A DNA stretch of 64,000 bases, taken from Escherichia virus TH58. The stretch is from sequence record MT446423.1; one strand, given 5' to 3'. Positions 38,523 through 54,910 of this stretch are shown here, piece after piece. The notes beneath the pieces are model-generated. The model saw only the letters and a program-made list of their open reading frames with translations, did not search any database and was not told the DNA's origin. Positions within the stretch are counted from its first letter, which is position 1; every line of letters starts with the position of its first letter. Position numbers and translations under genes: made by a program.

Positions 38523-38554
38523 GCCCCTTCCGAAAGGTTGGGGCTTTTTTTTTT
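38523..38554 (+). terminator. intrinsic terminator GCCCCTTCC-GAAA-GGTTGGGGC plus T10
   Basis: GNRA-loop hairpin followed by a 10-nt T-run; one of four near-identical copies. Confidence 0.75.
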
Positions 38555-38596
38555 GGCATAATAAATAGATAAGTTAATTAACTTAGGAAAAGCAAC

Positions 38597-39061
38597 ATGA
38601 AATCATACGCTGAATTTTTGACTGAACAATCTAGTTCAGATGTAAAAGCCGCTGCGATTGCAGCAATTCGAGCAGGTAAATATTCTTACAAAGACGCCTC
38701 TGATGAAGAACGTTTCCGTTTTATTAGAGATTTTAAAGCCGAAGGTTTTACTAATGCTAATACTGTTAGCCGAGTTTTTAAAAGCCTAGCTGCATCAGGT
38801 GAATTGTTCCAGAAAGCTACAGGTAAAGCACCTGCGCCAAAAGCGGACCCTAAAGCCGCTCAAGAAAAAAATATCGCCAAAGGAATTATTTCTAAGTATG
38901 AAGCAATTCTTAAAGAGCTTTTAGTAATCAAATCAGAAGGCCAGAAACTGGCACGAGCACATAGCTTCAAAGATAATCCTCACGCTCATAGCCTTGAGTA
39001 TGTTGAAGATATCCAAAAACTTATTAAAGACCGTATCTGGTCTGCTAAACAAATTAAATAA
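38597..39061 (+). CDS. internal-protein-like protein with capsid-targeting sequence
   Basis: N-terminus MKSYAEFLTE resembles the targeting motif; 154 aa. Confidence 0.5.
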   Translation: MKSYAEFLTEQSSSDVKAAAIAAIRAGKYSYKDASDEERFRFIRDFKAEGFTNANTVSRVFKSLAASGELFQKATGKAPAPKADPKAAQEKNIAKGIISKYEAILKELLVIKSEGQKLARAHSFKDNPHAHSLEYVEDIQKLIKDRIWSAKQIK

Positions 39062-39067
39062 TAGAAT

Positions 39068-39095
39068 GCCCCTTCCTTACGGTTGGGGCTTTTTG
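39068..39095 (+). terminator. intrinsic terminator GCCCCTTCC-TTAC-GGTTGGGGC plus T-run
   Basis: Near-identical copy of the 38523 terminator. Confidence 0.7.
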
Positions 39096-39127
39096 GTATC
39101 TAGGGCATAAAAATATTTCATAAAGAT

Positions 39128-39157
39128 GTTTACTTCTTCTAAGGACATGATACTATA
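39128..39157 (+). promoter_or_regulatory. early promoter cassette (GTTTAC ... TGATACTATAG)
   Basis: Family member upstream of ORF 39185. Confidence 0.5.
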
Positions 39158-39184
39158 GACTTATCAACCACATAGGAAAATGTT

Positions 39185-39688
39185 ATGAGTCTTTATACTG
39201 AACTGAATAAAAAATCTGAAGAATCTGCTGAAACTATTTTTAAAAACGTGCAAAAACGTATTTTAGAAAAGATGTATAACGCTGCATCTAAAGGTGAAAA
39301 ATCTTGCCGGTTCCCGATGAGGTGTTCCTCCGATTTATGCGCAAATACTATTGAATGGCTGGAAAGTGAAGGTCTTACGGTAGAGAAAAACCCGGCGACT
39401 TCTATTGACAGCGAATCATATATTAGTATTTCTTGGGATAAATCAAGGGTAGAAGAGAAAGATGGTGATTGGGTTGTAGATGTTAAAACTTCTGATGGTG
39501 GACGTTCTGTTGAAGTTTCAGCTGTAGTTAAAGGTACCCACGAACAAAGGACTTGGGGTTGGGGTGGTGAAGAAAAAGAAATTGTTCTTAGTGTGATTGC
39601 CAGGTCAACTAGTAATAAAATTGCACAAAGCATCATTGACGCTGCAATTGCTGAAGCAGAAAAAATTTGCAAAATTAAAAATAAATGA
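39185..39688 (+). CDS. hypothetical protein
   Basis: 167-aa ORF. Confidence 0.45.
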   Translation: MSLYTELNKKSEESAETIFKNVQKRILEKMYNAASKGEKSCRFPMRCSSDLCANTIEWLESEGLTVEKNPATSIDSESYISISWDKSRVEEKDGDWVVDVKTSDGGRSVEVSAVVKGTHEQRTWGWGGEEKEIVLSVIARSTSNKIAQSIIDAAIAEAEKICKIKNK

Positions 39689-39712
39689 TGTACAAACGCC
39701 AAGGATGGTGAT

Positions 39713-39994
39713 ATGATTACTCCACCAACAAATGAGGAAAACAAAATGTTTAAGTCTGATATCGAACAAGCTAAAGAAATCGCCTCAGAATACTTTGGTT
39801 CATTCTTACGTCTTTTTGGAGAAATTCCTGAATTTAATTCTGCATCAGAATCTGCGGAAGCTTTAAAGGCCATTGAAAATATTATTTTGGAAGACCTTAA
39901 ATCTTTCGACGGTTCTAATCTTTCGGCACTTCCTCGTATAATCGATATCCATGTTCTGGATAAAATGGAAGAGATTATTAATTCGTACAAATAA
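39713..39994 (+). CDS. hypothetical protein
   Basis: 93-aa ORF. Confidence 0.4.
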   Translation: MITPPTNEENKMFKSDIEQAKEIASEYFGSFLRLFGEIPEFNSASESAEALKAIENIILEDLKSFDGSNLSALPRIIDIHVLDKMEEIINSYK

Positions 39995-40024
39995 GTGTAC
40001 AAACTCTTGAGAGCAGAGTATAAT
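39995..40024 (+). promoter_or_regulatory. early promoter (GTGTAC-N18-TATAAT) with GAGAGC / GCTCTC inverted repeat
   Basis: -10 TATAAT 40019-40024 flanked by inverted repeat. Confidence 0.45.
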
Positions 40025-40066
40025 GCTCTCGTTGGATAATAAAACCACCAATTGAAAGGTAATAAT

Positions 40067-40660
40067 ATGAACACACTAAAGAAACTTGTTGAATTCATCC
40101 GCACTAAACTGGGTACTGCTATGGCTAAAAATCTGACTGTCGAAGAACAGTATAACGCAGCCGCAGATAAGTTGATTACCCAAATCAAAGAACTAAAAAC
40201 GGCTTCTGTTAAATCTATTAATGAAGAAAAACGTATTCGCGAACTTGCTAATGAAAAGAACAAGCAAGCTGCTTCTAAGGAACGTGAAATTCGTAAGCTC
40301 CTGGCTGAAGGACAAGATGTTACCATGCATGCTAAGCTTGGTCTTCTGTATCGTCGAACTGCCGAACAACTTAATACAAAAGCTGCCGGGTATGCCGCTA
40401 TGCGAATTGAAATTGCTCGTAAGGTGGTTGAACTTGATGATGCTCGTCAGAATCTGGCAATCAAACTCGAATACATTCGTGAAACTCGAGCAGCTAATGC
40501 CCTTGGTATCTCTACGGCTGATGATGTAATTGAAATCGCTGCACTGACTAAGGTTGATATCGAAGACACTCTGACTCGTGTTGAAACGTTCAATGGCACT
40601 CCAACCGGTGTCGAAACCACTTCTGCTGATGTACAAGAATATATTAACTCTTTGAAATAA
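40067..40660 (+). CDS. coiled-coil protein (weak PspA/IM30-like character)
   Basis: 197 aa, almost entirely heptad-like helical sequence. Confidence 0.4.
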
Positions 40661-40668
40661 AATAATAC

Positions 40669-40691
40669 GGAGGACTCCGGTCCTCCTTTTG
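40669..40691 (+). terminator. intrinsic terminator GGAGGAC-TCCG-GTCCTCC plus TTTT
   Basis: Perfect 7-bp stem then T-run after the coiled-coil gene. Confidence 0.65.
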
Positions 40692-40709
40692 GATAATAAA
40701 GGAGTTAAC

Positions 40710-41306
40710 ATGCGAAACCAAAATAATGATATTGACTCGATGTTCGAAGAGTTCCGAAATAAGGTAAATCCACCTACGTCTTTAGTTGATTCATTACGAT
40801 ATATTGCAACTGGACGTAAATGGTACTGGTCGTCTTCTTATGAGACAACTGAATATGCAAATAACCGAAAATCTTTATTAGCCCCAGGTATTATGATTCA
40901 TGATATCGGAGCTATTGCTAAACTAGTTGCAGACCATGATATTAGATTCACTGATTTCGTTGCTCCTACGTGGTCTGTTTGTTGTTTAAACACTGAATGG
41001 GACTATATCAGTGAACGCTCTGAAGATTATTATGGTTTTAGAGATAAGCTCTTAAGGTCTAACATGTTTTATATCGATACTGAAGTCCTAGTCGATAATA
41101 AAAAATATTACTTTACGTTAATCGTCGATTCTGAAACTATGTATGAAGGCAAGCCTTTGCTTAAAAGAGTTGATGCTTTAAGTGCTATTGATGCGCTTTA
41201 TGAAACTATGGTTGTTAGTCCTAATTTCACTAACAATTTAATCCTTGAGCAATTTATTATGGAATGTAGAGAATATGTCAAAGCCAACCCTATACATGCC
41301 AAGTAA
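40710..41306 (+). CDS. hypothetical protein ending in FIMECR motif
   Basis: AAGGAG RBS then ATG 40710; 198 aa. Confidence 0.45.
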   Translation: MRNQNNDIDSMFEEFRNKVNPPTSLVDSLRYIATGRKWYWSSSYETTEYANNRKSLLAPGIMIHDIGAIAKLVADHDIRFTDFVAPTWSVCCLNTEWDYISERSEDYYGFRDKLLRSNMFYIDTEVLVDNKKYYFTLIVDSETMYEGKPLLKRVDALSAIDALYETMVVSPNFTNNLILEQFIMECREYVKANPIHAK

Positions 41307-41670
41307 GCCCTGGGCATACGAATACAAACGTAAATTAATTCCTAATGAAGTGTTGTTTGGTCCTATTTTAGCTTTAGCATTTTTAATCTTTATGATTATA
41401 GGAGCTATTTTAGATTCCAATAAAGTTATATCGTCTGATGCAGTGTTTTTACTTATTATAGTCGGGTCGTTTATTGTACCATTTTTATTAATGCCTATTA
41501 ACTGGGTGGGATATTGGTACCAAGGACGTCATCATAGAGCCCGATTAAGAGAATGGAAAGTTCAGTGCGCAAAAGCCCAAGCTCAGTATGACGAAGCTGT
41601 TAAAAAGTATGAATATGAAGAAGCTATGGAATTCGTTAAGGAAATAAGATGCAAAAGCCTCAACTCTTAA
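41275..41670 (+). CDS. small membrane protein ending in FVKEIRCK motif
   Basis: About 131 aa with two TM segments. Confidence 0.45.
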   Translation: MSKPTLYMPSKPWAYEYKRKLIPNEVLFGPILALAFLIFMIIGAILDSNKVISSDAVFLLIIVGSFIVPFLLMPINWVGYWYQGRHHRARLREWKVQCAKAQAQYDEAVKKYEYEEAMEFVKEIRCKSLNS

Positions 41671-42008
41671 CCGTATGGCCTTCTCTTGGTGAGAACATTC
41701 TAATTTTTATTATGAGTATTGGCATGGGATTTGCCTTTGGACTAGTTGGATTTCTTATTGACGGTGTTGTGTTAGGATTTATAGGGAACACCGGTGGATT
41801 CACAGACCAATGGCAGGACTTACGGTATACCCAAGCCTTTGCATCCATCGCATCCTTTTGTACTGTAGTCTATTTTTACTATGATTTTATAAGCCATAAC
41901 AAGAAAAATAAAAAGGTTTACGCTTCTCAAATGATTAGTTATAATGAACTCCTAGCTAGACGTGAAAATGAAACAATAGAAAACTTTATTAAGGAATGTA
42001 GAAAATGA
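41649..42008 (+). CDS. small membrane protein ending in NFIKECRK
   Basis: 119 aa with two TM segments. Confidence 0.45.
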   Translation: MQKPQLLTVWPSLGENILIFIMSIGMGFAFGLVGFLIDGVVLGFIGNTGGFTDQWQDLRYTQAFASIASFCTVVYFYYDFISHNKKNKKVYASQMISYNELLARRENETIENFIKECRK

Positions 42009-42310
42009 GTAAGATTATTGAAATTAAAGTACCAGAGTTTAATGATGCCAAATCCGCTTCAGATGCAATTTATAAACTTCTGAATCAAGCTGAACGTATC
42101 GAAGAAGAGGCAACAAAGATCGCAGACCAATACGCCGTATCATTTTCTGTAGGTGATTATGGTAGCGGTCGTACTTATTATCCTAAGGGTGAAATCGTAT
42201 CCCAGTGGATGAAAGATGAAATTGAAAATAATGGTGGCGATGTTAAGCGTGAAGGTAATGGTTACGTTATTACTGAAGGTGCTTGGGTTTCGTCTTCTGC
42301 GTTGTGCTAA
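42005..42310 (+). CDS. paralog 1 of tandem trio (C-terminus GAWVSSSALC)
   Basis: 101 aa. Confidence 0.45.
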   Translation: MSKIIEIKVPEFNDAKSASDAIYKLLNQAERIEEEATKIADQYAVSFSVGDYGSGRTYYPKGEIVSQWMKDEIENNGGDVKREGNGYVITEGAWVSSSALC

Positions 42311-42321
42311 GGGGAATCATT

Positions 42322-42594
42322 ATGTCTAAAGAACAAACCGAACTGGCTGAAGCTGTAGCAAAAATCTATGCAGCTATTGAGGCTGCCAAAGAAATTGCTG
42401 ATAAACAAAACACAACATTCGACTTGTGTCCAGCTTATGGTATGGGCGGAACCTATCATTCACCCGGACAACTTAAAGCCGATCTTGAACGTTGTACAAA
42501 AAACGGCTATGCTGAATGGGCTGACGTTTACCAATACGACTACAATCTGAGCCTCGAAACTGGTGGTTGGATTGCATCTTCTCACACTTGTTAA
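42322..42594 (+). CDS. paralog 2 of tandem trio (C-terminus GGWIASSHTC)
   Basis: About 90 aa. Confidence 0.45.
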   Translation: MSKEQTELAEAVAKIYAAIEAAKEIADKQNTTFDLCPAYGMGGTYHSPGQLKADLERCTKNGYAEWADVYQYDYNLSLETGGWIASSHTC

Positions 42595-42603
42595 GGAAAC
42601 CAT

Positions 42604-42801
42604 ATGTCTCGTGAATTAGATTGTGCTGTACGTACGGCAGTAGCTGCTCTGGAAAACCTGTTCCAAATTGCAACAGAAGAACGCGAAGAAGTTACATTAT
42701 GGATTGAAGATAACGCAGGTCTGAATCTCCAGAACGCAATCTCGGTATCAAATAATAGTATTACTGTTCAAGGCTGGGTATCATCTAGTTATTCTTGCTA
42801 A
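42604..42801 (+). CDS. paralog 3 of tandem trio (C-terminus QGWVSSSYSC)
   Basis: 65 aa. Confidence 0.45.
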   Translation: MSRELDCAVRTAVAALENLFQIATEEREEVTLWIEDNAGLNLQNAISVSNNSITVQGWVSSSYSC

Positions 42802-42805
42802 AACA

Positions 42806-42836
42806 GTTTACAACAAGATAGGGCTATGTTATAGTA
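42806..42836 (+). promoter_or_regulatory. early promoter cassette (GTTTAC ... TGTTATAGTA) with inverted repeat
   Basis: GATAGGGCT / AGTCCTATC arms around the -10. Confidence 0.5.
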
Positions 42837-42863
42837 GTCCTATCAAATTAAATGGAGTCCACA

Positions 42864-43103
42864 ATGATTTATTACGAAAGTGTTGGAACCAAAGTGGTTG
42901 GTAAAACCATTACTCGTGAAAAGTTTGCTAAGATATTCGATATGCGTTATAAAAAATCTGAACACAAAGGCATTCGATTCGAAGATGCGCACTGTACAAT
43001 TTGCCCTTATAATGAAGACATAAATGGTACAATCGTTCCATTGGTAGAGGCTTCACACGATGACCTCTGGGATGAATATGATATCGCATGTCGTGAAATT
43101 TAA
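42864..43103 (+). CDS. hypothetical protein
   Basis: GGAG RBS then ATG 42864; about 79 aa. Confidence 0.4.
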   Translation: MIYYESVGTKVVGKTITREKFAKIFDMRYKKSEHKGIRFEDAHCTICPYNEDINGTIVPLVEASHDDLWDEYDIACREI

Positions 43104-43131
43104 GTTAATGAATTAATCCGAGGAAAATATT

Positions 43132-44088
43132 ATGATGTTAGTTATTGGTTCTCGTGCACTTCACTATCACGGTCTTATTGATTCTAATGCTATCAAAAAT
43201 AGTGACTGGGACTTTATTGCAGACCAAGGTTCTTGGAATGCATTTAAAAATCAAATGATGGGTGTATATGTTCATCAAGATAACCCTGATGTCCAAGTTT
43301 TCAAATGCTTCCATAACGGACGCGAAACTCATTTTGAAGCATATATTGTTCCGGCAATCACTAATGTCCGTGAATTAGTAGGTGAACTCACTCCTGAAGA
43401 TTTCACGTCTTCTTATGACCTTTTAAAATACGCCAAGAAAAATTTGTCTAAAGATCATTTGAACGGGTTTTACTGGGCAACTCCTGAGATGTGTCTTGCA
43501 ATTAAGATGTCTCATCGTTTCAAGAAAAATAATCCATTCTTTTTAAAGACTATGAACCATATTCAGTATCTTCGTGGTAAAGGTGTTACACTGAACGATG
43601 AACTTACTGAAATTATGCTGAAACGCCAGAAAGAAACCTTGAACTATGCTCACCCAGTTCTTGACACTTCTAAAAGTGCGTTCTTTAAAGATGACATCTA
43701 TACTTATGACCATGATACTATTCATGAAGCCATTGCACTAACAGACCGTCCAGCGTATACATTTTATATGAAAGACGGTTCTGAAGTCATGACCTCACGT
43801 GAGAAGTTCGAATCATTACCAGAAATGGTCAAATTGGCCGGTGTATATGAAGAATCATGTGTACTAGCATTAGAACGTTCTCAGATTCCTAATGACTTTA
43901 AAATTAACCCTGAAGCCAGTTTTATGATGGCATTGGAAAAAGTCTGTACAAGCATCACCTCCGGTTGGTTCCGTGAGTACGCATACGAGAACTATTATGA
44001 AGTAGTGGCTATGTATCATAAGCTCGGCAAAAATGATTACGTCAAACGTTTCAAACAAAATTTCCATATGGTAAAACCTTTCAAATAG
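43132..44088 (+). CDS. hypothetical protein, possible nucleotidyltransferase fold
   Basis: 318 aa; N-terminal VIGSRAL...SDWDFI loosely resembles a GS...DxD motif. Confidence 0.4.
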   Translation: MMLVIGSRALHYHGLIDSNAIKNSDWDFIADQGSWNAFKNQMMGVYVHQDNPDVQVFKCFHNGRETHFEAYIVPAITNVRELVGELTPEDFTSSYDLLKYAKKNLSKDHLNGFYWATPEMCLAIKMSHRFKKNNPFFLKTMNHIQYLRGKGVTLNDELTEIMLKRQKETLNYAHPVLDTSKSAFFKDDIYTYDHDTIHEAIALTDRPAYTFYMKDGSEVMTSREKFESLPEMVKLAGVYEESCVLALERSQIPNDFKINPEASFMMALEKVCTSITSGWFREYAYENYYEVVAMYHKLGKNDYVKRFKQNFHMVKPFK

Positions 44089-44100
44089 TTTCGCAAAGCT

Positions 44101-44131
44101 GTTTACAACATGATAGGACTATGTTATAGTA
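44101..44131 (+). promoter_or_regulatory. early promoter cassette (GTTTAC ... TGTTATAGTA) with inverted repeat
   Basis: ATAGGACT / AGTCCTAT arms around the -10. Confidence 0.5.
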
Positions 44132-44158
44132 GTCCTATTAAAACATGAGGAGAATATT

Positions 44159-44464
44159 ATGAAATTAGGCGAAACCAACCGAATTGGTCTTTTAACAATA
44201 TTTGCATCACCTTTTTACGCAGCTCTTTCTGTTGCAGTATTACAAAAGGCTTACGATATGGATGGTGTTCCTGGTTTTGTATTCTTATCGCCGTTTTTGC
44301 TATTCGTTGGAGCATTGTTATTATATGCCACGACTAGTTTCGACCATAATGTCTGGGTCAATTATAAATGTAAATTGTCTGAAGAAGAACACGCGGAAGC
44401 TCGTAAAAAAGCTATTGAATCTACCAATCTAGAAAATTTCATTAAAGAATGTCGAGGAAAATAA
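44159..44464 (+). CDS. small membrane protein ending in NFIKECRGK
   Basis: 101 aa with two TM segments. Confidence 0.45.
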   Translation: MKLGETNRIGLLTIFASPFYAALSVAVLQKAYDMDGVPGFVFLSPFLLFVGALLLYATTSFDHNVWVNYKCKLSEEEHAEARKKAIESTNLENFIKECRGK

Positions 44465-44465
44465 T

Positions 44466-45152
44466 ATGAATAGTTCTAAAGTGTTTAATAGTCAAGCTCG
44501 TGCAGTAGGTGGTTTTGCTCATGCGATTAAAAACGACCAGATTAAAAACGAGCCTATGTTCTTTAACTGTGATTTGAATTTTGCTTTTGATAATGGCGGC
44601 CCAATTACTCGTAGCTTTATCCAAAATCTTCCCGACGATTGGAAAGACTCGGATGTAGTATTTGATTCACGAGTTCACATGCTGATGCCTGGTTGGTATC
44701 CTGCTATTCCTGGATATCACCATGATGATGTTCCTCGCCCTGATATTCCAGTTGGTCAACACTTTATTACTGCAGGACAACCTGATTATGACAACCCTCG
44801 TTACCATTCTGAACATATTCTTGGTCTTGTTAACGCTGATGTGTGTCCTACTCATTTTGCAACAGGAACTGCAGAGTTCAGTCAGATTCCTGATGGCGAA
44901 CTTATCTATCGCCAGTGGCACAAAGAAGTCCTCGAAAAAATCGAAAAAGGCGAACTAGAGAAATGGGAAGCTCCAGATCATACTCTTCTTCAGTTTGATT
45001 GGCAAACATGGCACACTGGTTCTCGTGCAATTAGTAATGGATGGCGTTGGTTCGGCCGTGTATCTCGTAATACAGACCGAGTTAAAAAGATTACCAATGA
45101 AATTCGTGTCAACGCTCAAGTTTATCTGGAATTCCCTATGGAAGGCTGGTAA
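44466..45152 (+). CDS. hypothetical protein (weak HxD...H pattern)
   Basis: 228 aa; YHHDD and WHTGSR motifs. Confidence 0.4.
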   Translation: MNSSKVFNSQARAVGGFAHAIKNDQIKNEPMFFNCDLNFAFDNGGPITRSFIQNLPDDWKDSDVVFDSRVHMLMPGWYPAIPGYHHDDVPRPDIPVGQHFITAGQPDYDNPRYHSEHILGLVNADVCPTHFATGTAEFSQIPDGELIYRQWHKEVLEKIEKGELEKWEAPDHTLLQFDWQTWHTGSRAISNGWRWFGRVSRNTDRVKKITNEIRVNAQVYLEFPMEGW

Positions 45153-45631
45153 TGATTAACAATAATATAGACGATGGCAATGAAGGTATTTCATACTATT
45201 CAGTAGATTGGACAGGATGTCCATCCTACTTAGTGAAACATATTTGCCAAGAATTTAAAATCGACCAGCCAGCAGGTATTATCGTGAACAGATACATTAA
45301 TGGATATCAACCTATCGATGAAGTAATACGAACAACTCAAGCTGAGCTTGAAAGGTTTTTCAATAAGTGCCAATGGATAACAGGATGGATTATATTTGTA
45401 CCATCTATATGGTTTTTCAGTACTAAGGTGAGTTCTTTCGGTTTTGTTGATATTATTGCTATCTTATTAGCATCTAGTATCATAAGTGTTGTTGGTGGCA
45501 TCATCGGCGGCGGTACCGCCGCCATCATTATTAATCTTATTAAAAGTAGTTTACAAGAACATAAAGACAAGATAAAGGCCAAGAATAATGAAGTTGAACG
45601 TTTTATTACCGAATGCAGGAATTTGAGATGA
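45152..45631 (+). CDS. membrane protein ending in RFITECRNLR
   Basis: 159 aa with glycine-rich TM segment. Confidence 0.45.
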   Translation: MINNNIDDGNEGISYYSVDWTGCPSYLVKHICQEFKIDQPAGIIVNRYINGYQPIDEVIRTTQAELERFFNKCQWITGWIIFVPSIWFFSTKVSSFGFVDIIAILLASSIISVVGGIIGGGTAAIIINLIKSSLQEHKDKIKAKNNEVERFITECRNLR

Positions 45632-45864
45632 GTATAGCAATTTACATTAAATCAGAATCATGTGATTCTTATCTGTATTCCTATGATACCGGAACGTCAG
45701 AAGAGAAAATCAAAGAAGATTTAGAAAGCGACTTGGATATGTTCCGACCTATTTCTGATTATATGGTCCAAATATCTGATAGTGAAAGTCCGTCAACAGA
45801 AACATGTGTTGAAATTATTATACGAGATATCTTTAAACGATCATGGGACCGAGATGATGAGTAA
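45628..45864 (+). CDS. hypothetical acidic protein
   Basis: About 78 aa from ATG 45628 with AGGA RBS. Confidence 0.4.
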   Translation: MSIAIYIKSESCDSYLYSYDTGTSEEKIKEDLESDLDMFRPISDYMVQISDSESPSTETCVEIIIRDIFKRSWDRDDE

Positions 45865-46312: not shown

Positions 46313-46320
46313 GTAATAAA

Positions 46321-47616: not shown

Positions 47617-47646
47617 GTTTACGCTTAAGTATTAATATGGTATAAT
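47617..47646 (+). promoter_or_regulatory. early promoter (GTTTAC-N18-TATAAT)
   Basis: Upstream of internal-protein gene 47677. Confidence 0.5.
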
Positions 47647-47676
47647 TACTCTATCAAAACAAACAAGGAAACAAAA

Positions 47677-47979
47677 ATGAAAACATATCAAGAATTTATT
47701 ACTGAAGCGCGAGTGAGTGCAGGTAAATTAGAAGCCGCTATAAATAAAAAGGCCTATTCATTTCACGATTTGTCCGATAAAGACCGTAAGAAACTTGTAA
47801 GCCTTTATATTGACAAAGAGCGTATTCTCGCTCTTCCTGGCGCTAATGAAGGTAAACAGGCCAAGCCTTTGAATGCTGTCGAAAAGAAAATTGATAACTT
47901 TGCTTCTAAATTCGGTATGTCTATGGATGACCTTCAGCAAGCGGCTATCGAAGCAGCTAAAGTAATTAAAGGTAAATAA
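47677..47979 (+). CDS. internal protein with capsid-targeting sequence
   Basis: N-terminus MKTYQEFITEARV; 100 aa. Confidence 0.55.
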   Translation: MKTYQEFITEARVSAGKLEAAINKKAYSFHDLSDKDRKKLVSLYIDKERILALPGANEGKQAKPLNAVEKKIDNFASKFGMSMDDLQQAAIEAAKVIKGK

Positions 47980-47981
47980 CA

Positions 47982-48010
47982 GTTTACTTTCTCCTAGAAT
48001 TGTGATAGTA
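47982..48010 (+). promoter_or_regulatory. early promoter cassette (GTTTAC ... TGTGATAGTA)
   Basis: Family member upstream of the denV-remnant ORF. Confidence 0.45.
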
Positions 48011-48058
48011 TATTCATAATTACTTGGATGGGTAAAATGACTCAATGAAAAAATTTTA

Positions 48059-48241
48059 ATGAAGCCACACTGGTATAAGTATTACGGCAAAAATATTTAC
48101 ATTCAAATAACATGGGAACAACCTGGACCTCATGATTCTATGAGGGATTCCCGCCAACCTGTAATAAGGTCGAGCCCAAGTGCGGTAATGGGTAAATACA
48201 GAAATGGACAATTCATGTGCCATGGAATGGCCCAAACCTAG
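48059..48241 (+). pseudogene. ghost of a denV 3' end (PHWYKYYGKNIY) fused to a short ORF
   Basis: Codons 3-14 (48065-48100) duplicate the denV C-terminus with many synonymous changes. Confidence 0.4.
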
Positions 48242-48245
48242 AGAG
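48154..48245 (+). repeat. direct repeat copy A (about 92 bp) upstream of the internal-protein gene
   Basis: CCAACCTGTAATAAGGTCGAGC...GCGGTAATGGG...ATGTGCCATGGAATGGCCCAAACCT repeated at 48651-48745. Confidence 0.6.
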
Positions 48246-48251
48246 AACAAA

Positions 48252-48581
48252 ATGAAAACATATCAAGAGTTTATCACTGAAGTTACATTATCTGCGGAAC
48301 AGAAAGCTGCTATCGAAGAAGCTAAAAATCCCAAAGTAACATATAAAGTAAATAGTAAAGGCGTTTTTGATGACTTGGTTCAAGACCCTGAATTGAAAAA
48401 AGCTCTTTCTAAAACTAATGCGTACTTTGCTCCTAAATTTAACACAGCCGGCGTACTTATTGGATTGGATGTATTCAACTCTAAAGGTGTTCTATCTAGT
48501 GCCTTTGGTTATGCCGCTAACAAAATTACCAAAGCCGCATGGGAATCCAATACCAAACAAGCTCAAAAGCCTAGAGTATAA
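48252..48581 (+). CDS. internal protein with capsid-targeting sequence
   Basis: N-terminus MKTYQEFITEVTL; 109 aa; flanked by direct repeats. Confidence 0.55.
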   Translation: MKTYQEFITEVTLSAEQKAAIEEAKNPKVTYKVNSKGVFDDLVQDPELKKALSKTNAYFAPKFNTAGVLIGLDVFNSKGVLSSAFGYAANKITKAAWESNTKQAQKPRV

Positions 48582-48650
48582 TTCTTGCCTAATAAAGGGA
48601 AACGCAACCTCTCCTTATGAACGTCGAGTCCTCTAAGTGATGTACCTTTT

Positions 48651-48745
48651 CCAACCTGTAATAAGGTCGAGCGCAATGCGGTAATGGGTTTACATAGCGA
48701 GTCGAAGGACCTAACATGTGCCACGGAATGGCCCAAACCTTAAGA
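48651..48745 (+). repeat. direct repeat copy B (decayed, 1-nt indel versus A)
   Basis: See copy A. Confidence 0.6.
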
Positions 48746-48753
48746 GAAATAAT

Positions 48754-49293
48754 ATGAGAACATTTTTAACTGGACCTTATCTATCCCTGATGAATGCTTT
48801 TACACACCATTCTGATGCTAGAGTAGAAGAAATTTGTAAGAACGGTTATGTCCCGCCGTTTGAAGACGTACTCAAGCAGTACTGTACACTTCGTTTAGAC
48901 GGCGGCCGACAATCAGGTAAATCAATTGCTGTGACTAACTTTGCTGCTAATTGGCTGTATGACGGTGGAACAGTTATTGTTCTTTCTAATACTTCAGCTT
49001 ATTCTAAAATTTCTGCCTGCAACATTAAAAAAGAATTTTCTCGTTATTCTAGCGATGATATTCGATTCCGTTTATTTACTGATTCTGTCCGTAGTTTTAT
49101 TGGCAATGAAGGTTCTAAATTCCGTGGATTAACGCTTTCTCGTATTCTGTATATAATTGACGAGCCTATTAAAGCTCCTGATATGGATAAGATTTACAAT
49201 GTCCATATTAAATCAGTACAGCACTGCTGCAAAAGCAAATATTGCATCGGCGGTAATGCTCGTCCTCAATTTTTTGTGATTGGAATGCAATGA
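48754..49293 (+). CDS. small P-loop NTPase (T4 vs.8 position)
   Basis: Walker A GGRQSGKS and Walker B LYIIDE; about 179 aa. Confidence 0.5.
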   Translation: MRTFLTGPYLSLMNAFTHHSDARVEEICKNGYVPPFEDVLKQYCTLRLDGGRQSGKSIAVTNFAANWLYDGGTVIVLSNTSAYSKISACNIKKEFSRYSSDDIRFRLFTDSVRSFIGNEGSKFRGLTLSRILYIIDEPIKAPDMDKIYNVHIKSVQHCCKSKYCIGGNARPQFFVIGMQ

Positions 49294-49598
49294 TGACAAC
49301 TATTGAAGTTTTTGAATATTGTTATAATAGCCCAGTATGCAATAAAAGGGCCCTTGTAGAAAATTACGAGATTTACCATTTTAAACCTAAACGATATCGT
49401 TTGACTAAAGGCCCGTTCGCAGGGCAGCAGGTTCTTTGTACTGCTCCTAATGAGCGGTTGATGACTAGTATTCCGCATTTCAAAATGGAATTTATTGATG
49501 GGCCATTTAAGGGATTAATCACTCAAAGTTTAATGGCGTTTAATTCCGACCCATTTTTGATTAAAGAAAAAACTTGGATAAATTTATTTTCTAATTGA
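49290..49598 (+). CDS. hypothetical protein (vs.7 position)
   Basis: 102 aa, overlaps upstream stop. Confidence 0.4.
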   Translation: MMTTIEVFEYCYNSPVCNKRALVENYEIYHFKPKRYRLTKGPFAGQQVLCTAPNERLMTSIPHFKMEFIDGPFKGLITQSLMAFNSDPFLIKEKTWINLFSN

Positions 49599-49604
49599 GG
49601 TTAT

Positions 49605-49967
49605 ATGAAAGCATATCAAATTCTTGAAGGTGCACATAAAGGCACTATTTATTTTGAAGACGGTACTCAAGCCCGGATTATCGTCTCTAAGACTTTTAAA
49701 GAAGACGCTATTGTAGACCCGGAAATTTTCTACGGTTTGAATGCCCGTGAAATTGAAATTGAACATCAACCTAAAGTTAAAATTGAAGGTGGTCAACACC
49801 TGAACGTTAACGTTCTGCGTCGTGAAACTCTGGAAGATGCAGTTAAGCATCCAGAAAAATATCCGCAGCTGACCATCCGTGTATCCGGTTATGCGGTTCG
49901 CTTTAACTCTCTGACTCCAGAACAGCAGCGCGACGTTATCGCTCGTACCTTTACTGAGAGTCTATAG
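49605..49967 (+). CDS. autonomous glycyl radical cofactor (GrcA/YfiD-like)
   Basis: C-terminal half [61 protein letters not shown] matches the E. coli GrcA glycyl-radical motif (RVSGYAV). Confidence 0.85.
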
Positions 49968-50191
49968 TGGCTAAATTGATTATAGAAGGGTCTGAAGATG
50001 TTTTAAAATGTTTTGCCGCCTGGTTTAGTTGCTCAGGCGAGCAATCATTCACTGAAGCATTTAGAATGGGTGATATTACTGGAAACTATCCGACAACTGA
50101 TATCACTGTACGTGGATATGGTATTAATGAGCCTATCCAATTGGTCGAATATGACCTTGCCACCGATGAGGAAATTCCTTATGTCGATTGA
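49967..50191 (+). CDS. hypothetical protein (vs.5 position)
   Basis: 74-aa ORF. Confidence 0.4.
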   Translation: MAKLIIEGSEDVLKCFAAWFSCSGEQSFTEAFRMGDITGNYPTTDITVRGYGINEPIQLVEYDLATDEEIPYVD

Positions 50192-50447
50192 AGATATTAA
50201 AGGTTACAAACCGCTCACCGATGACAAAATCGGCAAAGTGAACGCTATTAAAGATGCAGAAGTCCGTCTTGGATTGATGTTTGATGCTCTGATTGAAGAA
50301 GCATATATCTTGAAAGAAAATGAATCAGAGCAACAAACCAAAGAAGATATGGATGCAGTGCAGGCTCTTAAGTATGCTAAGCAACATCTAAAAGAAGCCA
50401 GTATGTGGGCATGTCGTGCAGTATTTCGACCTGAGGAAAAATACTAA
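50184..50447 (+). CDS. small helical protein at T4 vs.4 position (candidate Acb2-type cyclic-nucleotide sponge)
   Basis: 87 aa from ATG 50184 with GAGGAA RBS; assignment by synteny only. Confidence 0.4.
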   Translation, partial: SIEDIKGYKPLTDDKIGKVNAIKDAEVRLGLMFDALIEEAYILKENESEQQTKEDMDAVQALKYAKQHLKEASMWACRAVFRPEEKY

Positions 50448-50662
50448 TGGCTTCTACTATTACTGGGTTATTGGACTTTCAAGAAAAGGTCAACAAAATT
50501 TGTAGTGAATACTTAAAGTATCTTGAAGAAGACCTTGAAGATTGTAAGGAAGAAGGCGAAGAAGACTATGCTGACCAGCGTCGTCGCCAAATCGAAGAGA
50601 TGAGGCATTTCACCGATATAGTATCTAAAGAATCTTGGGCTTTAACTCCATTTTATCAATAA
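50447..50662 (+). CDS. hypothetical acidic protein (vs.3 position)
   Basis: 71-aa ORF. Confidence 0.4.
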   Translation: MASTITGLLDFQEKVNKICSEYLKYLEEDLEDCKEEGEEDYADQRRRQIEEMRHFTDIVSKESWALTPFYQ

Positions 50663-50666
50663 AGTA

Positions 50667-50696
50667 GTTTACTTCTCCTCTAGTTGTGTTACTATA
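50667..50696 (+). promoter_or_regulatory. early promoter cassette inside a 12-bp perfect inverted repeat that sequesters the regB RBS
   Basis: GTTTAC 50667-50672, TGTTACTATA 50687-50696; CTCCTCTAGTTG (50675-50686) pairs with CAACTAGAGGAG (50704-50715). Confidence 0.55.
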
Positions 50697-50723
50697 GAAC
50701 TGTCAACTAGAGGAGAAATCAAA

Positions 50724-51182
50724 ATGACTATCAATTCAGACGTTTTTATCCGCCGTAATAAACTCCGTCGAATCTTTGAAACGGAGTTCCGCAAAATAAA
50801 TGCCGGTATAAAAGATGCTGCAAAGTCTCTTGGACTACCAGGCTTTCATATCAAGTATTCTCAACATCTCTTAGATCGTGCCATCCAGAGAGAAATAGAT
50901 GAGAACTACGTTTTTGAATTATTTCATAAAGTAAAAAATCATGTTAAAGAAGTTGCAGAATTTTTATCAATGCCGGCACGTCCGGATGTTGATGAAGATT
51001 TTGACGAAGGTGTCGAATATCGCCCAGGCCGTTTAGAAATAACTGATGGAAATCTTTGGTTAGGACTTACAGTTTGTCGCGAAAATCCGGCATTCAAAAT
51101 GAAGACTCTTCAATGCAGAATGGCTATTATTAACAGTAAACGATTACCAGGAAAAGCTTCTAAAGCAGTGATTAAAATCTAG
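50724..51182 (+). CDS. regB: RegB endoribonuclease
   Basis: 152 aa; N-terminus MTINSDVFIRRNKLRR; size and position between vs genes as T4 RegB. Confidence 0.7.
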   Translation: MTINSDVFIRRNKLRRIFETEFRKINAGIKDAAKSLGLPGFHIKYSQHLLDRAIQREIDENYVFELFHKVKNHVKEVAEFLSMPARPDVDEDFDEGVEYRPGRLEITDGNLWLGLTVCRENPAFKMKTLQCRMAIINSKRLPGKASKAVIKI

Positions 51183-51190
51183 AGGTAAAC

Positions 51191-51733
51191 ATGAGAAAAG
51201 CACTACTCGCTGGTCTATTTGCTCTTTCATTATCAGCACATAGCTCCGAGCATACTTTTAGTAATGTCCAACTCGATAACTTGAATTATGCTTATCAGTT
51301 TGGGGAACAGTTTTCTAAGGACGGAAAATTTAAAACGCATGAAAATATGCATAAGAAAGGACTTGGATACATAATGGCCGCAATACTATGGCAGGAATCA
51401 TCTGCCGGTATTAATCTTAAAGATAAGAAAGGTCACCATGCGTATGGAATGTTCCAAAATTATCTACCAACAATGAGGGCAAGAATTAACCAGCTTGGTT
51501 ATAATATGTCTGATGCCCAAATTAAGAAAATGCTATCTAAGCGGTCTAATTCAGCCAGATGGGCTTATATCGAATTTTCTTATTGGTTAAATATACATAA
51601 CGGGGATATAAGAAAAGCTATATCCTCATATAATGCGGGATGGAAGACAAGTGCTGGAAGTAAATATGCTTCTGAAGTCCTAGAAAAGGCTAATTACCTT
51701 AAATCAAATAAACTACTGGAAATAAAAGAATGA
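51191..51733 (+). CDS. secreted lytic-transglycosylase-like protein (T4 vs.1 position)
   Basis: Signal peptide MRKALLAGLFALSLSAHS; SLT motifs QESS, AYGMFQ, SSYNAGW. Confidence 0.6.
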   Translation: MRKALLAGLFALSLSAHSSEHTFSNVQLDNLNYAYQFGEQFSKDGKFKTHENMHKKGLGYIMAAILWQESSAGINLKDKKGHHAYGMFQNYLPTMRARINQLGYNMSDAQIKKMLSKRSNSARWAYIEFSYWLNIHNGDIRKAISSYNAGWKTSAGSKYASEVLEKANYLKSNKLLEIKE

Positions 51734-52077
51734 CCAAAATGTTGGCTTTAATAGTTGGCTTGGTTTCATTTAACGCTCTTGCTAATACTACATATACTGA
51801 TGTAACGGAGTATACAAACAGAACGGCGTCTGATTATTGTGGTCAAAGTCAAGAGTGTAAAGTAGATTTTTCACAAAAATTGTTATATGCGTATAAAGAC
51901 GGAGAAAAAGATGGGGCGTCTAGTAGGTTCAAGGCGTCTACCTTAATTAAAAGATACTATAAAAAATGGCAAATATTAGAATGCTCGGTGGCGGAACCTA
52001 AAGATAAGGCAGCATGCAATTCTATGGTGGACCGTCTAGTTGACTCTTATACTAGAGGACTTGCAGCAAGTGATTAA
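51730..52077 (+). CDS. small secreted cysteine-containing protein (T4 vs position)
   Basis: Signal peptide MTKMLALIVGLVSFNALA; four Cys; ATGA overlap with the SLT gene. Confidence 0.5.
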   Translation: MTKMLALIVGLVSFNALANTTYTDVTEYTNRTASDYCGQSQECKVDFSQKLLYAYKDGEKDGASSRFKASTLIKRYYKKWQILECSVAEPKDKAACNSMVDRLVDSYTRGLAASD

Positions 52078-52537
52078 AAACTATATCAAGGGCGATATTG
52101 TCGCCCTGTTTTCTAAAGGTAATAATATTGCTCATGGGTGTAATTGTTTTCATACAATGGGCGCCGGCGTGGCAGGACAATTAGCAAAGGCTTATCCAAA
52201 AATTTTAGAAGCCGATAAACTTCAAACCGAATTCGGAGACGAGTCTAAACTCGGGACTTATTCGGTTTATGAAAAATATTTTAAGACACATAAAGCTTAT
52301 TGCTTTAATCTTTATACACAGTTTGAGCCGGGACCTAATTTTGAGTACTCTGCTTTAATGAATTGTATAATAGAATTAAATGAATTCGGAAAGAATAAGA
52401 TAACAAAGCCTGTAATTTATATGCCAAGAATTGGTGCAGGTATCGGTGGTGGAAACTGGGATGTCATCGAAGAGATTTTAGATACGTATTCCACTAAACT
52501 AGAAATTGTGATTGTTGATTGGGAACCATTATTATGA
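52070..52537 (+). CDS. TARG1/OARD1-like macrodomain protein (T4 tk.4 position)
   Basis: KGDIVA...IAHGCNCFHTMGAGVAG and YMPRIGAGIGGGNWDVIEEIL align with TARG1 motifs; start uncertain (GTG 52070 with GAGGA RBS, or TTG 52040). Confidence 0.6.
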   Translation: MIKNYIKGDIVALFSKGNNIAHGCNCFHTMGAGVAGQLAKAYPKILEADKLQTEFGDESKLGTYSVYEKYFKTHKAYCFNLYTQFEPGPNFEYSALMNCIIELNEFGKNKITKPVIYMPRIGAGIGGGNWDVIEEILDTYSTKLEIVIVDWEPLL

Positions 52538-52746
52538 ATATACATTATCCGCATCCATATGACCCAAAGAATAAGGCAGTAATTATTCGACAATGGGAAC
52601 GCATTTGTCGTACCAAATGTCCAATTAATAGTCCACATGATGTAGATAAAGACTACATCGGAACATTCGTTGAATATACCTTTATTGATAAGAAAGGTCG
52701 TAAACAGCATGTAGAAGAATACTGCTTAAAGGTGACATGGTTATGA
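52534..52746 (+). CDS. hypothetical small protein (tk.3 position)
   Basis: About 70 aa from MNIHYPHPYD. Confidence 0.35.
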   Translation: MNIHYPHPYDPKNKAVIIRQWERICRTKCPINSPHDVDKDYIGTFVEYTFIDKKGRKQHVEEYCLKVTWL

Positions 52747-52928
52747 GTTTAAGCAAAGAACAAAAAGACAAACTCTTTTCTCTTATCCACGAAGTTATGG
52801 ATAAAAACAGTGAATTGGAAAAAGTTTGTGATGAATGCGGTCCTTTTAATGCAAACGAGTACGAAGAACTTTCTAAAGAATTCGATAATAAAGAACAAGA
52901 ACTTATTAATTATATAAATTCCTTATGA
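52737..52928 (+). CDS. hypothetical small acidic protein (tk.2 position)
   Basis: 63 aa; resembles the next ORF. Confidence 0.35.
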   Translation: MVMSLSKEQKDKLFSLIHEVMDKNSELEKVCDECGPFNANEYEELSKEFDNKEQELINYINSL

Positions 52929-53122
52929 TTACTCGCGAACAAAAGAACGAAATATTATTTTTAGTTGGTGAAATTATTAGTTTAGAAAAGGATTTGTCTT
53001 TTGAATTATCTTCTGATTATGGAGATGCCGAAACATATTACGAATTAGTAAAATCTATCGATAAAGCTGAAAATGATTTAGAAACATATTTAGAAAATTT
53101 AACTAAGGACTCTTATGGCTAG
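52925..53122 (+). CDS. hypothetical small acidic protein (tk.1 position)
   Basis: 65 aa. Confidence 0.35.
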   Translation: MITREQKNEILFLVGEIISLEKDLSFELSSDYGDAETYYELVKSIDKAENDLETYLENLTKDSYG

Positions 53123-53696
53123 TTTAATTTTTACATATGCCGCTATGAATGCTGGTAAGTCTGCTTCATTACTTACTGCCGCACATAACTATAAAGAACG
53201 TGGCATGGGTGTATTAGTTCTTAAACCGGCTATTGATACTCGCGATTCAAAAGGTGAAATAGTCTCTCGTATTGGTATTCGTCAAGACGCCAATATAATT
53301 ACAAAAGACATGGATATCTTTGAATTCTATAAATGGGCTGCAGCACAAAAGGATATTCATTGTGTATTTGTTGACGAAGCTCAATTCTTAACTACTGAAA
53401 AGGTGTATCAACTTAGTCGTATTGTTGACGTATACAATGTGCCGGTAATGGCATATGGACTACGAACAGATTTTAAAGGTAATCTATTTGAAGGTTCTCA
53501 AGCATTAATGGCTATTGCCGATAAGCTTGTTGAACTTAAAGGTGTCTGTCATTGTGGTAAAAAGGCCACAATGGTAGCTAGAGTCACGGAAGACGGACTT
53601 CCAATTACAGATGGCAGTCAAATTGAAATTGGTGATACTGATAGATATGTGTCATTATGCCGGAAGCATTGGAATGATTTGACAGGGTTGTTATAA
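53115..53696 (+). CDS. tk: thymidine kinase
   Basis: 193 aa; P-loop AAMNAGKS at N-terminus; CHCGKKA zinc motif. Confidence 0.9.
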   Translation: MASLIFTYAAMNAGKSASLLTAAHNYKERGMGVLVLKPAIDTRDSKGEIVSRIGIRQDANIITKDMDIFEFYKWAAAQKDIHCVFVDEAQFLTTEKVYQLSRIVDVYNVPVMAYGLRTDFKGNLFEGSQALMAIADKLVELKGVCHCGKKATMVARVTEDGLPITDGSQIEIGDTDRYVSLCRKHWNDLTGLL

Positions 53697-53723
53697 ATAC
53701 TAATATCTAACCAAGAGGTATAT

Positions 53724-53936
53724 ATGCAGCAATTAAACGAAAGACAACTTCGTAATCTTACTGTAACCCAATTGGATGAAATCCGAAGAGAATTAGGACA
53801 TTCTATTTCTCATTTAAACGAGGATATCCGTCAAACTGGTTCTAAAGCTGATTATACACGCAAGCGCAAGCTGGAAAAATACCTCACAGATGTTAAGGCC
53901 GTCCAAAGGCGAAAAATAAATACTGGCCAAAATTAA
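53724..53936 (+). CDS. hypothetical protein
   Basis: 70-aa ORF between tk and rI. Confidence 0.4.
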
Positions 53937-53948
53937 CAGGAGGCCTAT

Positions 53949-54252
53949 ATGGCCTTAAGAGCGATAGCTGTCATGGCGATGCTGGGGTTTTTTTGCAGCA
54001 ACAACTCCTATCGTTGGTACTGCACATATTGACCCATATTTTGATAACTTTATGGAATCAGGGATTAAAAACGTATATACTTTGTTTGAAATTCAAAATG
54101 TCGAGAATTCTGAAAAATTCTATAAGTATATGGCAAAGCATTACAAAAATAGCCCCTGTGATGATGCATTTGAATGTCATGAACAAGGCATAAAAACTGC
54201 CAGACAATTTGCCGAGTTCATGAAAATAAAATTAGAGCCTACATCTATCTAA
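53949..54252 (+). pseudogene. rI: rI lysis-inhibition regulator (antiholin), interrupted by a +1 frameshift in a T7 tract
   Basis: AGGAGG RBS and ATG 53949 give MALRAIAVMAMLGFF then stop at 54030; the RI-like periplasmic domain (DPYFDNFMESGIK...KIKLEPTSI) continues in the +1 frame to 54252; T7 at 53988-53994. Confidence 0.6.
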
Positions 54253-54259
54253 TTTACCT

Positions 54260-54287
54260 GCCCCTTCCGAAAGGTTGGGGCTTTTTG
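54260..54287 (+). terminator. intrinsic terminator GCCCCTTCC-GAAA-GGTTGGGGC plus T-run
   Basis: Copy 3 of the repeated terminator, directly after rI. Confidence 0.7.
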
Positions 54288-54295
54288 TATAAATA
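54288..54295 (+). promoter_or_regulatory. late promoter TATAAATA
   Basis: Perfect TATAAATA 25 nt upstream of ORF 54320. Confidence 0.5.
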
Positions 54296-54319
54296 TCCTT
54301 GTAAACTAAGAGAGGATAT

Positions 54320-54877
54320 ATGAAATTTTTAAAATATGTAAGTTGGGTTGTTCTTGTTCCTATAGATTGGATCGCAGCGATTTTAGCAATTATTCTAGCG
54401 CCATTTGTAGTTCCATTCCATAGTGAAAAAACCGGTAAACTACCTTATGGCTTTAACTGGATGATGACTTACGATAATCCTATCGATGGTGACCGCGGCC
54501 ATGTTGAACGTTGGTCTAAAATACGTAAAATTCCTGTTATAGGTAAATATGCTCAACGCGTAGCTTGGCTATGGCGCAACAAAGCATATAATTTTTCGTA
54601 TCATGTTTTAGGTCGCGAAGCTTCATCAGAATGGCATTATAAAGGCAACGCCGAAACTAAATCTGGATCTCCTGATCCAGCACATCATGGATATCTTTTA
54701 GTTTGGAACGAGTCGGCATGGGGATTATTCGCTGCTATACCTTATCTTAAGGTTGGTGGTATTACATTTTATCTGCGTGTTTACTGTGGTTGGAAACTTA
54801 AGAGTCTTTTGAGTCGTCCTATTCCACGCGCAATGCTTTCATTCCATATCAACCCTTTACGATATTACAAAAACTAA
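54320..54877 (+). CDS. membrane protein
   Basis: 185 aa with N-terminal TM helix, Trp/Tyr-rich; late promoter upstream. Confidence 0.45.
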   Translation: MKFLKYVSWVVLVPIDWIAAILAIILAPFVVPFHSEKTGKLPYGFNWMMTYDNPIDGDRGHVERWSKIRKIPVIGKYAQRVAWLWRNKAYNFSYHVLGREASSEWHYKGNAETKSGSPDPAHHGYLLVWNESAWGLFAAIPYLKVGGITFYLRVYCGWKLKSLLSRPIPRAMLSFHINPLRYYKN

Positions 54878-54882
54878 TCAAA

Positions 54883-54910
54883 GCCCCTTCCGAAAGGTTG
54901 GGGCTTTTTG
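54883..54910 (+). terminator. intrinsic terminator GCCCCTTCC-GAAA-GGTTGGGGC plus T-run
   Basis: Copy 4 of the repeated terminator. Confidence 0.7.

Follow-up and report, generated by a model that had tools for sequence, protein, structure and literature searches.

Copies of one predicted terminator hairpin bracket exchangeable small-gene cassettes in a T-even phage

Introduction

How does the same intrinsic terminator come to stand at unrelated loci of one phage genome, and what does this mean for the genes that lie between its copies? The question is raised by a 64,000-nt stretch of Escherichia virus TH58 (MT446423.1), referred to below as the window, whose source is a T-even phage of the genus Mosigvirus (RB69-like) with nearest records that are 95-99% identical. 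An initial annotation, made from the sequence alone, reported four near-identical copies of a stem-loop followed by a T-run at positions 38523, 39068, 54260 and 54883, argued from the shared 22 nt that the element had been copied rather than evolved independently, and suggested that it could bracket exchangeable gene modules together with promoter cassettes. We find that the four copies form two direct-repeat pairs, each enclosing one small gene with a late-type promoter. From the comparison with relatives presented here, we consider it likely that this terminator family doubles as short homology for the gain, loss and relocation of such cassettes.

Shuffling of this type has been described for the promoter-early stem-loops (PeSLs) of T4-type phages (Arbiol, Comeau, Krisch 2010, PMC2839356; Comeau et al. 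2014, PMC4122927). In RB49/phi1, the terminator and promoter activity of PeSLs as well as their mini-circles were shown experimentally (PMC2839356). The model was extended to the phage pairs T4/PST and KVP40/nt-1, and the early promoters of T-even PeSLs follow the consensus TTTACW N17 TAYWAT (PMC4122927).

Results

Four exact copies of one hairpin

We scanned the whole window with the pattern GCCCCTTCCNNNNGGTTGGGGC, allowing up to 3 mismatches. The element GCCCCTTCC-N4-GGTTGGGGC gave exactly four matches, each without a mismatch and all on the + strand, which in the window is the direction of early transcription; 0.01 matches were expected by chance, and four were reached in none of 100 shuffles. 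Each copy (numbered 1 to 4 by position, Table 1) is directly followed by a T-run, T10 at copy 1 and T5 at the other three. The shared stem-loop of the initial annotation was recovered; the stem, however, is no perfect 9-bp helix but consists in all copies of five G-C pairs, a tandem U.U internal loop and two C-G pairs, closed by a tetraloop. The predicted hairpins have energies of about -14.2 to -17.4 kcal/mol, with z-scores of -2.4 to -3.7.

This is the architecture of an intrinsic terminator, a G+C-rich hairpin followed by a U-tract, oriented in the sense direction and placed where a gene or transcription unit ends. The copies share the + strand with every flanking gene, copies 2, 3 and 4 begin 5-7 nt past stop codons, and copy 1 begins 51 nt past the 3' end of rnaC. 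A standard terminator scan, which needs an uninterrupted stem, called none of the four (0/4), because the tandem U.U internal loop interrupts the stem. It was replaced by an RNAfold-based census of hairpins with T-runs over the whole 64-kb window, which recovered the four copies and revealed no other repeated terminator family. Software-predicted terminators are annotated at orthologous sites in several GenBank records. An Rfam search of the region matched only the two tRNAs (37696-37852), and the hairpin sequence itself was not found in the literature. Judged by its architecture, the element appears to be a real Rho-independent terminator family, with termination itself predicted.

Relatives differ by exactly one repeat unit

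Copies 1 and 2 enclose cassette A, a unit of 545 bp made up of a late-type promoter, a gene of 154 aa and the second terminator. Copies 3 and 4 enclose cassette B, a unit of 623 bp with a DUF7338 gene behind an exact late-promoter motif, as the initial annotation had observed for the second pair. Copies 2 and 4 also share the flank TTTTTGGYATCTA, which is followed by an early promoter; the one after copy 2 serves an ATG at position 39185. In the following, the two places are called the rnaC slot and the rI slot after the genes upstream.

In T4, a single related hairpin, GCCCCGACCGAAAGGTTGGGGC with T5, stands after rnaC; its stem is fully paired, with -20.3 kcal/mol. The T4 flank upstream of this hairpin matches the upstream flank of copy 1, while the downstream flank TTTTTGGTATCTAAGCC (TTTTTGGTATCTA) matches the downstream flank of copy 2, TTTTTGGTATCTAGGGC; the window therefore carries the 545-bp unit relative to T4. 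From this shared context, copy 1 appears to occupy the ancestral site, the end of the tRNA/rnaD/rnaC transcription unit that is common to both phages. Tequatrovirus HY01 has the same cassette A arrangement as the window, so that T4 and HY01 differ by cassette A. Within Mosigvirus, ECO111 5-P lacks exactly window positions 38550-39067, with an alignment overlap of 27 nt and one terminator kept; the 154-aa gene is present neither there nor in T4.

The rI slot behaves in the same way. DCP548, AV110, SF and HX01 lack window positions 54287-54881, with an alignment overlap of 28-29 nt, and again keep one terminator: in these four, rI is followed by a single terminator and the early promoter of the next gene, and the 59-aa DUF7438 gene, the first past the slot in the window, lies directly 3' of the single terminator in relatives without cassette B. 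The alignment overlap at both loci (27-29 nt) equals the repeat length. The DUF7338 cassette is present in PTE-Eco05 and ECO111 5-P, and in a phage collection we found the empty rI junction in 131 records and the DUF7338 gene at 95% identity or more in 22. LF82-4, which is 1.3 kb longer than its siblings, has no terminator-bounded duplication at the rI locus, and the locus is ordinary. The copies thus coincide with gene-content breakpoints, precise indels at both loci among relatives, as the initial annotation had proposed to check; none of them lies inside a conserved coding or RNA gene, as copy 1 is outside mature rnaC, although it is conserved with T4.

One cassette in two slots

The slots are also occupied differently between phages. 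In HX01, the rnaC slot holds a different gene of about 205 aa with its own TATAAATA; the 154-aa and 205-aa genes are distant homologs (24% identity, pairwise E=5e-5) and alternative occupants of this slot. The 205-aa gene has a Pro/Lys-rich linker; the copies compared are those of stretches L075 (8145-8762) and L277 (about 5820-6440). In SF, an additional T4-like e.8 gene is inserted right after TTTTTGGTATCTAGG.

In Dhakavirus JS10 and JS98-like contigs, a DUF7338 homolog with 75% amino acid identity sits in the rnaC slot and not beside rI. There, the cassette lies between two copies of the variant GGCCCTTCCGAAAGGTTGGGCC. As in the window, it has TATAAATA and the GTAAACTAA leader, and 5 nt separate its stop codon from the hairpin. 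The early promoter behind its second terminator copy is homologous to that behind window copy 2. Further stretches show the rnaC slot with DUF7338 alone (L046), empty (L137), with DUF7338 followed by the 205-aa gene (L075) and with a 154-aa-type gene followed by DUF7338 (L168). The same cassette thus occurs in two terminator-bracketed slots, and the gene order within a slot varies. As the DUF7338 cassette occupies the rI slot in the window and the rnaC slot in JS10, the JS98-like contigs and L046, at least one relocation is needed. Together with the differences of one repeat unit at both loci, this directly supports the proposal that the repeats bracket exchangeable modules.

A simpler reading is that the terminator-flanked cassettes are ancestral and have only been lost, with the repeats promoting deletion by slippage or recombination and no insertion or relocation taking place via the terminator. 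Deletion between short direct repeats is the simplest event, explains every single-terminator state and would account for the 131 empty against 22 occupied rI slots. However, it does not provide for the presence in two different slots of a DUF7338 cassette whose leader and stop-to-hairpin spacing are unchanged, nor for the different gene orders of L075 and L168. In addition, the rI slot of T4 holds an extra gene, rI.-1, and an unrelated CUUCGG-type terminator, GTCTCC-TTCG-GGAGAC, so that the rnaC-type hairpin at this slot is derived. We regard loss alone as unlikely.

Stem and loop variants change together

The stem varies by genus but not between the two copies around a cassette: Tequatrovirus HY01 carries GA, Mosigvirus TT and Dhakavirus GGCCC..GGGCC, the last being a compensatory flip of pair 2 from C-G to G-C. 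Along with the same imperfect stem and the TTTTTGGYATCTA flank of copies 2 and 4, this bears out the initial view that the copies are not independent. The loop alleles GAAA and TTAC/TTAT (TTAY) differ at 4/4 bases, and both are found at both slots across Mosigvirus genomes. The pattern of variants fits recurrent recombination or gene conversion among copies.

Two single copies deviate further. Copy 4 of ECO111 5-P (L278, 22908) reads GCCCCAACC..., an AA variant that restores a fully paired 9-bp stem, and copy 1 of SA79RD (L004, 2027) reads GGTCGGGGC, with one further mismatch. In other T4-like genera, the same terminator is present at a third conserved site, outside the window, with '...tttagtctagtgt..' on one side and, on the other, a convergent gene whose C-terminus is acidic. 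There the GCCCC variant was seen in L050, L062, L118, L152, L160, L164 and L165 and the GGCCC variant in L092, L167 and L169; the Dhakavirus copy at this site carries the genus-specific GGCCC.

The two arms of the stem differ in their conservation. The 5' arm varies, whereas T4, Mosigvirus and most other variants have the same 3' arm, GGTTGGGGC, from which Dhakavirus and SA79RD copy 1 each differ by one base. A near-constant 3' arm, and the conservation of copy 1 in three genera at the end of an extensively processed stable-RNA operon, could mean that the sequence is conserved mainly because it does more at the RNA level than terminate. It might, for instance, stabilise 3' ends, or be a signal for processing or protein binding in the tRNA/rnaC precursor that has been taken over by mRNAs, and its link to indels would then be incidental. 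Such a role leaves the unit-length indels and the relocation of the cassette unexplained, and beyond the tRNAs the region gave no Rfam match. As the explanation of the repeats we find it rather improbable, while as an additional property it is compatible with a function in cassette exchange, the two not being mutually exclusive.

The stem occurs beyond T-even phages

The exact stem was searched for in IMG/VR with 22 specified bases. With TTTT, it was present in 57 stretches, among which there were many unrelated flanks. A bacterial genome scan gave 29 contigs, from diverse bacterial or archaeal phyla but not from Escherichia, with an exact GCCCCTTCC-N4-GGTTGGGGC-TTTT. The exact stem is also found in the T4-like genera KP15, RB43, CfP1 and PEi20 and in non-T4 contigs, among them a 77,554-bp one that we take to be phiEco32; the loops outside the window include TTTC, TTTT, TCAC and GCAA (IMG/VR L016-L165; genome loci L279-L307).

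As unrelated phages and 29 contigs of bacteria or archaea also carry the exact stem, stem identity alone would not prove copying; this part of the initial argument is not sufficient by itself, while its conclusion stands on the flanks and the comparative data. We also considered, and dropped, the idea that every non-T4 occurrence might reflect horizontal transfer of the element, since the 29 hits are spread over diverse phyla and do not include Escherichia. Outside the T-even group, we make no claim that the occurrences are copies. In a looser scan for GCCCCNNCC-N4-GGNNGGGGC-TTTT, TT/TT and TG/TG (tandem GU) were the commonest interiors among the matches listed, which are not independent of each other, and we draw no functional conclusion from this survey of GCCCC-NN-CC...GG-NN-GGGGC hairpins.

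A hairpin found this widely can arise or spread readily, and four hairpins might in principle have evolved independently in the window and share their sequence by chance. Nevertheless, the T-even copies share the TTTTTGGYATCTA flank, a homologous early promoter and the unusual U.U/U.U interior, on either side of a cassette they vary in step from genus to genus, and relatives differ by exactly one repeat unit. Convergence is thus extremely unlikely overall, and within T-even phages the shared flanks and unit-length indels exclude it.

Indels preferentially end at regulatory elements

The initial annotation linked the terminator copies to promoter cassettes. We aligned window positions 33000-57900 to four Mosigvirus genomes (AV110, SF, HX01 and ECO111 5-P) and located the ends of the indels. 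Eight of the 17 distinct right-hand indel boundaries fall in the 20 nt that precede an early promoter or a terminator copy, where 0.27 would be expected (binomial P 9e-11), and 0 of 100,000 random placements reached eight. Regulatory elements are thus preferred junctions in this hyperplastic 25-kb region, which upholds the proposed link. The only early promoters of the region with an upstream hairpin are those after copies 2 and 4.

Five of the boundaries (39989, 41916, 44101, 47602 and 50663) are located 1-16 nt upstream of the T4-type early promoters at 39996, 41917, 44102, 47618 and 50668. Having no upstream hairpin, these promoters look like promoter-only recombination linkers.

Features of the two slots

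Table 1. Coordinates of the two slots and their surroundings in the window
Feature	Position	Strand	Detail
rnaD-like (species 2 RNA) region, partly conserved with T4	about 38212-38325	+	blastn of T4 rnaD
rnaC (species 1 RNA) homolog	38333-38471	+	98.6% identity to T4 rnaC, all 139 nt
Trailer from rnaC 3' end to copy 1, conserved with T4	38472-38522	+	
Terminator copy 1	38523-38554	+	hairpin 38523-38544, loop GAAA, T10; counterpart of T4 terminator after rnaC
Near-consensus late promoter	38560-38567	+	AATAAATA
Cassette A gene	38597-39061	+	154 aa, phrog_2280
Terminator copy 2	39068-39094	+	hairpin 39068-39089, loop TTAC, T5, then GGTATCTAGG (also T4 flank)
Early promoter, T4 type	39129-39156	+	TTTACT N16 TACTAT, 3' of copy 2
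rI (lysis-inhibition) gene, frameshifted in window	53949-54252	+	extra T in run 53988-53994
Terminator copy 3	54260-54286	+	hairpin 54260-54281, loop GAAA, T5; 7 nt past rI stop
Late promoter, exact T4 motif	54288-54295	+	TATAAATA
Cassette B gene	54320-54877	+	185 aa, Pfam DUF7338 / phrog_2143, hydrophobic N-terminus
Terminator copy 4	54883-54909	+	hairpin 54883-54904, loop GAAA, T5, then GGCATCTA; 5 nt past DUF7338 stop
Early promoter, T4 type	54922-54949	+	TTTACT N16 TATAGT, 3' of copy 4
First gene past slot B	54977-55156	+	59 aa, DUF7438, ATG 54977

The 154-aa product gave no Pfam match. At the site of its near-consensus late promoter, Tequatrovirus HY01 and Dhakavirus relatives have an exact TATAAATA. 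Upstream of the rnaC slot, T4 rnaD matches the window by blastn with 94% over its positions 1-53 and 92% over positions 94-118. In T4, tRNA-Arg, rnaD and rnaC are contiguous with no protein gene between them, whereas the window has an ORF of 130 aa (37823-38215, phrog_3355) between tRNA-Arg and rnaD. The listed TTG start of this ORF overlaps the tRNA, and the family match extends from residue 17 on. At 37842-37860, AV110 and ECO111 5-P have a 560-nt insertion right after tRNA-Arg, in which AV110 annotates a CDS of 534 nt.

The T-run of rI at 53988-53994 has 7 T in the window and 6 in eight relatives, resulting in two stop codons in the normal frame; either the phage is a true rapid-lysis (r) mutant or the frameshift is a homopolymer sequencing error. 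The T-run of copy 1 (38545-38554) is T10 in the window and T5 in SF and ECO111 5-P. This expansion of a T-homopolymer, like that in rI, hints at homopolymer errors in the source assembly.

Discussion

Relation to PeSLs

The arrangement described here is a clean instance of an already described mechanism, that of PeSL-type regulatory linkers, with some variant features. Copies 2 and 4, and only these two, consist of a stem-loop, a sigma70-like early promoter, a Shine-Dalgarno sequence and an ATG; being followed by T4-type early promoters, they therefore match the published PeSL elements. As for PeSLs, the setting is a hyperplastic region in which small genes of unknown function are flanked by the elements and indels or replacements between close relatives end in them, and in both cases self-expressed, transcriptionally insulated modules can be inserted or deleted. 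In contrast, the composite structure is not present at every copy: copies 1 and 3 combine the terminator with a late-type motif (AATAAATA at 38560 and TATAAATA at 54288) in place of an early promoter and are not strict PeSLs. Joining to late promoters is absent from both papers, which describe early (PeSL) and middle (PmSL) forms. A further difference is that the family described here is traceable to the terminator of the tRNA/rnaC operon.

We favor the following course of events for the shuffling of cassettes through the terminator. The hairpin would originally have belonged to the end of the tRNA/rnaD/rnaC unit, where copy 1 stands. Each repeat pair encloses a self-contained cassette in which one small gene has its own Shine-Dalgarno sequence and late-type promoter. 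At the RNA level, the repeat would stop read-in from upstream and thereby insulate the cassette and its neighbours, while at the DNA level its 22-28 bp of identity may serve as a homology patch for homologous recombination or direct-repeat slippage. The very active recombination and replication machinery of the phage could then excise, insert or relocate the cassette via this patch, and excision would probably yield a circle of 545 bp or 623 bp and leave one terminator behind. Such circles, the counterparts of the mini-circles that are experimental in RB49/phi1, are predictions here; we infer them, as well as termination in vivo and the recombination pathway, from the arrangement of the repeats. 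PeSL shuffling would thus act here via the stem-loop part, with 2/4 copies joined to late instead of early promoters.

Several observations weigh against this interpretation. Terminator activity is read from architecture and not from transcripts, and the stem is imperfect enough to have escaped the standard scan. Covariation over 11 stem variants amounts to one compensatory pair, which is not significant in an underpowered test. The shared repeat, the hairpin plus T-run, is short (22-28 bp) and is where the junctions lie here, whereas crossovers in RB49/phi1 mapped to the promoter and Shine-Dalgarno part and not to the stem-loop (PMC2839356). The element is found at only 1-4 places per genome, compared with dozens for PeSLs in RB49/phi1. 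Some junctions also depart from the pattern. The HX01 cassette ends in a different hairpin, a junction made without use of the terminator, and the rnaC slot of L154 (an IME341-like genome of 172,379 bp; 480-1150) is a mosaic that keeps a 3' remnant of DUF7338 and records a crossover that bypassed the terminator. The order in L154 is a Mosigvirus-type terminator, a 154-aa gene 95% identical to that of the window, about 119 nt with the DUF7338 remnant, and a Dhakavirus-type terminator. Finally, presence and absence alone do not tell whether a given event was a gain or a loss.

Comparison with other hairpins and mobile cassettes

Stable hairpins of the CUUCGG type were reportedly described in T4 intercistronic regions by Tuerk and colleagues in 1988. 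Like canonical terminators and such T4 hairpins, the element studied here is G+C-rich with a stable tetraloop (GNRA here) and a U-tract just past gene ends. It differs from the CUUCGG type in its tandem U.U loop, in having GAAA or TTAY instead of UUCG, and in being reused at several loci per genome. The unrelated T4 terminator mentioned above is located at the site equivalent to copy 4, before a homolog of the 59-aa gene. The retention of exactly one repeat copy in cassette-less relatives resembles solo-LTR formation and deletion between short direct repeats; unlike an LTR, the repeat here belongs to no transposable element and is a regulatory hairpin of 22-28 bp.

The combination of a single ORF with an imperfect hairpin, the tandem and variable order within one slot and a small circle as presumed intermediate recall integron cassettes with their attC sites. 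It is therefore conceivable that mobility is directed by an enzyme, a nuclease or recombinase of phage or host that recognises the hairpin in single-stranded or cruciform DNA in an attC-like or homing-like manner. Most variants retain the tandem mismatch, the crossovers lie in the hairpin and T-run, and Arbiol et al. speculated that a conserved GGGG...CCCC stem-loop may be a target (PMC2839356). Against this, no recombinase or endonuclease gene is located in or beside the cassettes, one gene having no Pfam match and the other belonging to DUF7338; no recombinase domain was found in the scanned ORFs near the cassettes, a search that did not extend to the whole genome. Fully paired stems exist in T4 (GA) and ECO111 5-P (AA), so that the mismatch is dispensable, and short homology suffices for T4-type recombination (cited in PMC2839356). 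Integrons also differ in having an integrase and an attI site, which are not part of the cassettes here, whereas each cassette described here has its own promoter, its hairpin doubles as a terminator, and general homologous recombination suffices. We consider enzyme-directed movement very unlikely. Its most specific form, in which the hairpin, with a tandem T.T/U.U interior that several T4-like genera retain, is a structure-specific site of an integron-like system that moves late-promoter cassettes among rnaC and rI slots and between genera, likewise has a very small chance of being correct.

Implications

Under the favored interpretation, exchange through the terminator, the two slots provide an unusually clean natural example of how T4-like phages exchange accessory genes and leave the neighbouring genes undisturbed. 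A single short terminator marks out at least two slots, and relatives show them in empty, occupied, differently occupied and reordered states. The PeSL idea would thereby come to cover Mosigvirus and Dhakavirus, the stem-loop part of the element and cassettes with late promoters. It also makes concrete predictions here: circles of 545 bp and 623 bp, and precise deletion junctions with a single terminator. For annotation, it means that simple terminator scanners miss this hairpin owing to its U.U interior. The slots could also be safe insertion sites for the engineering of therapeutic T-even phages.

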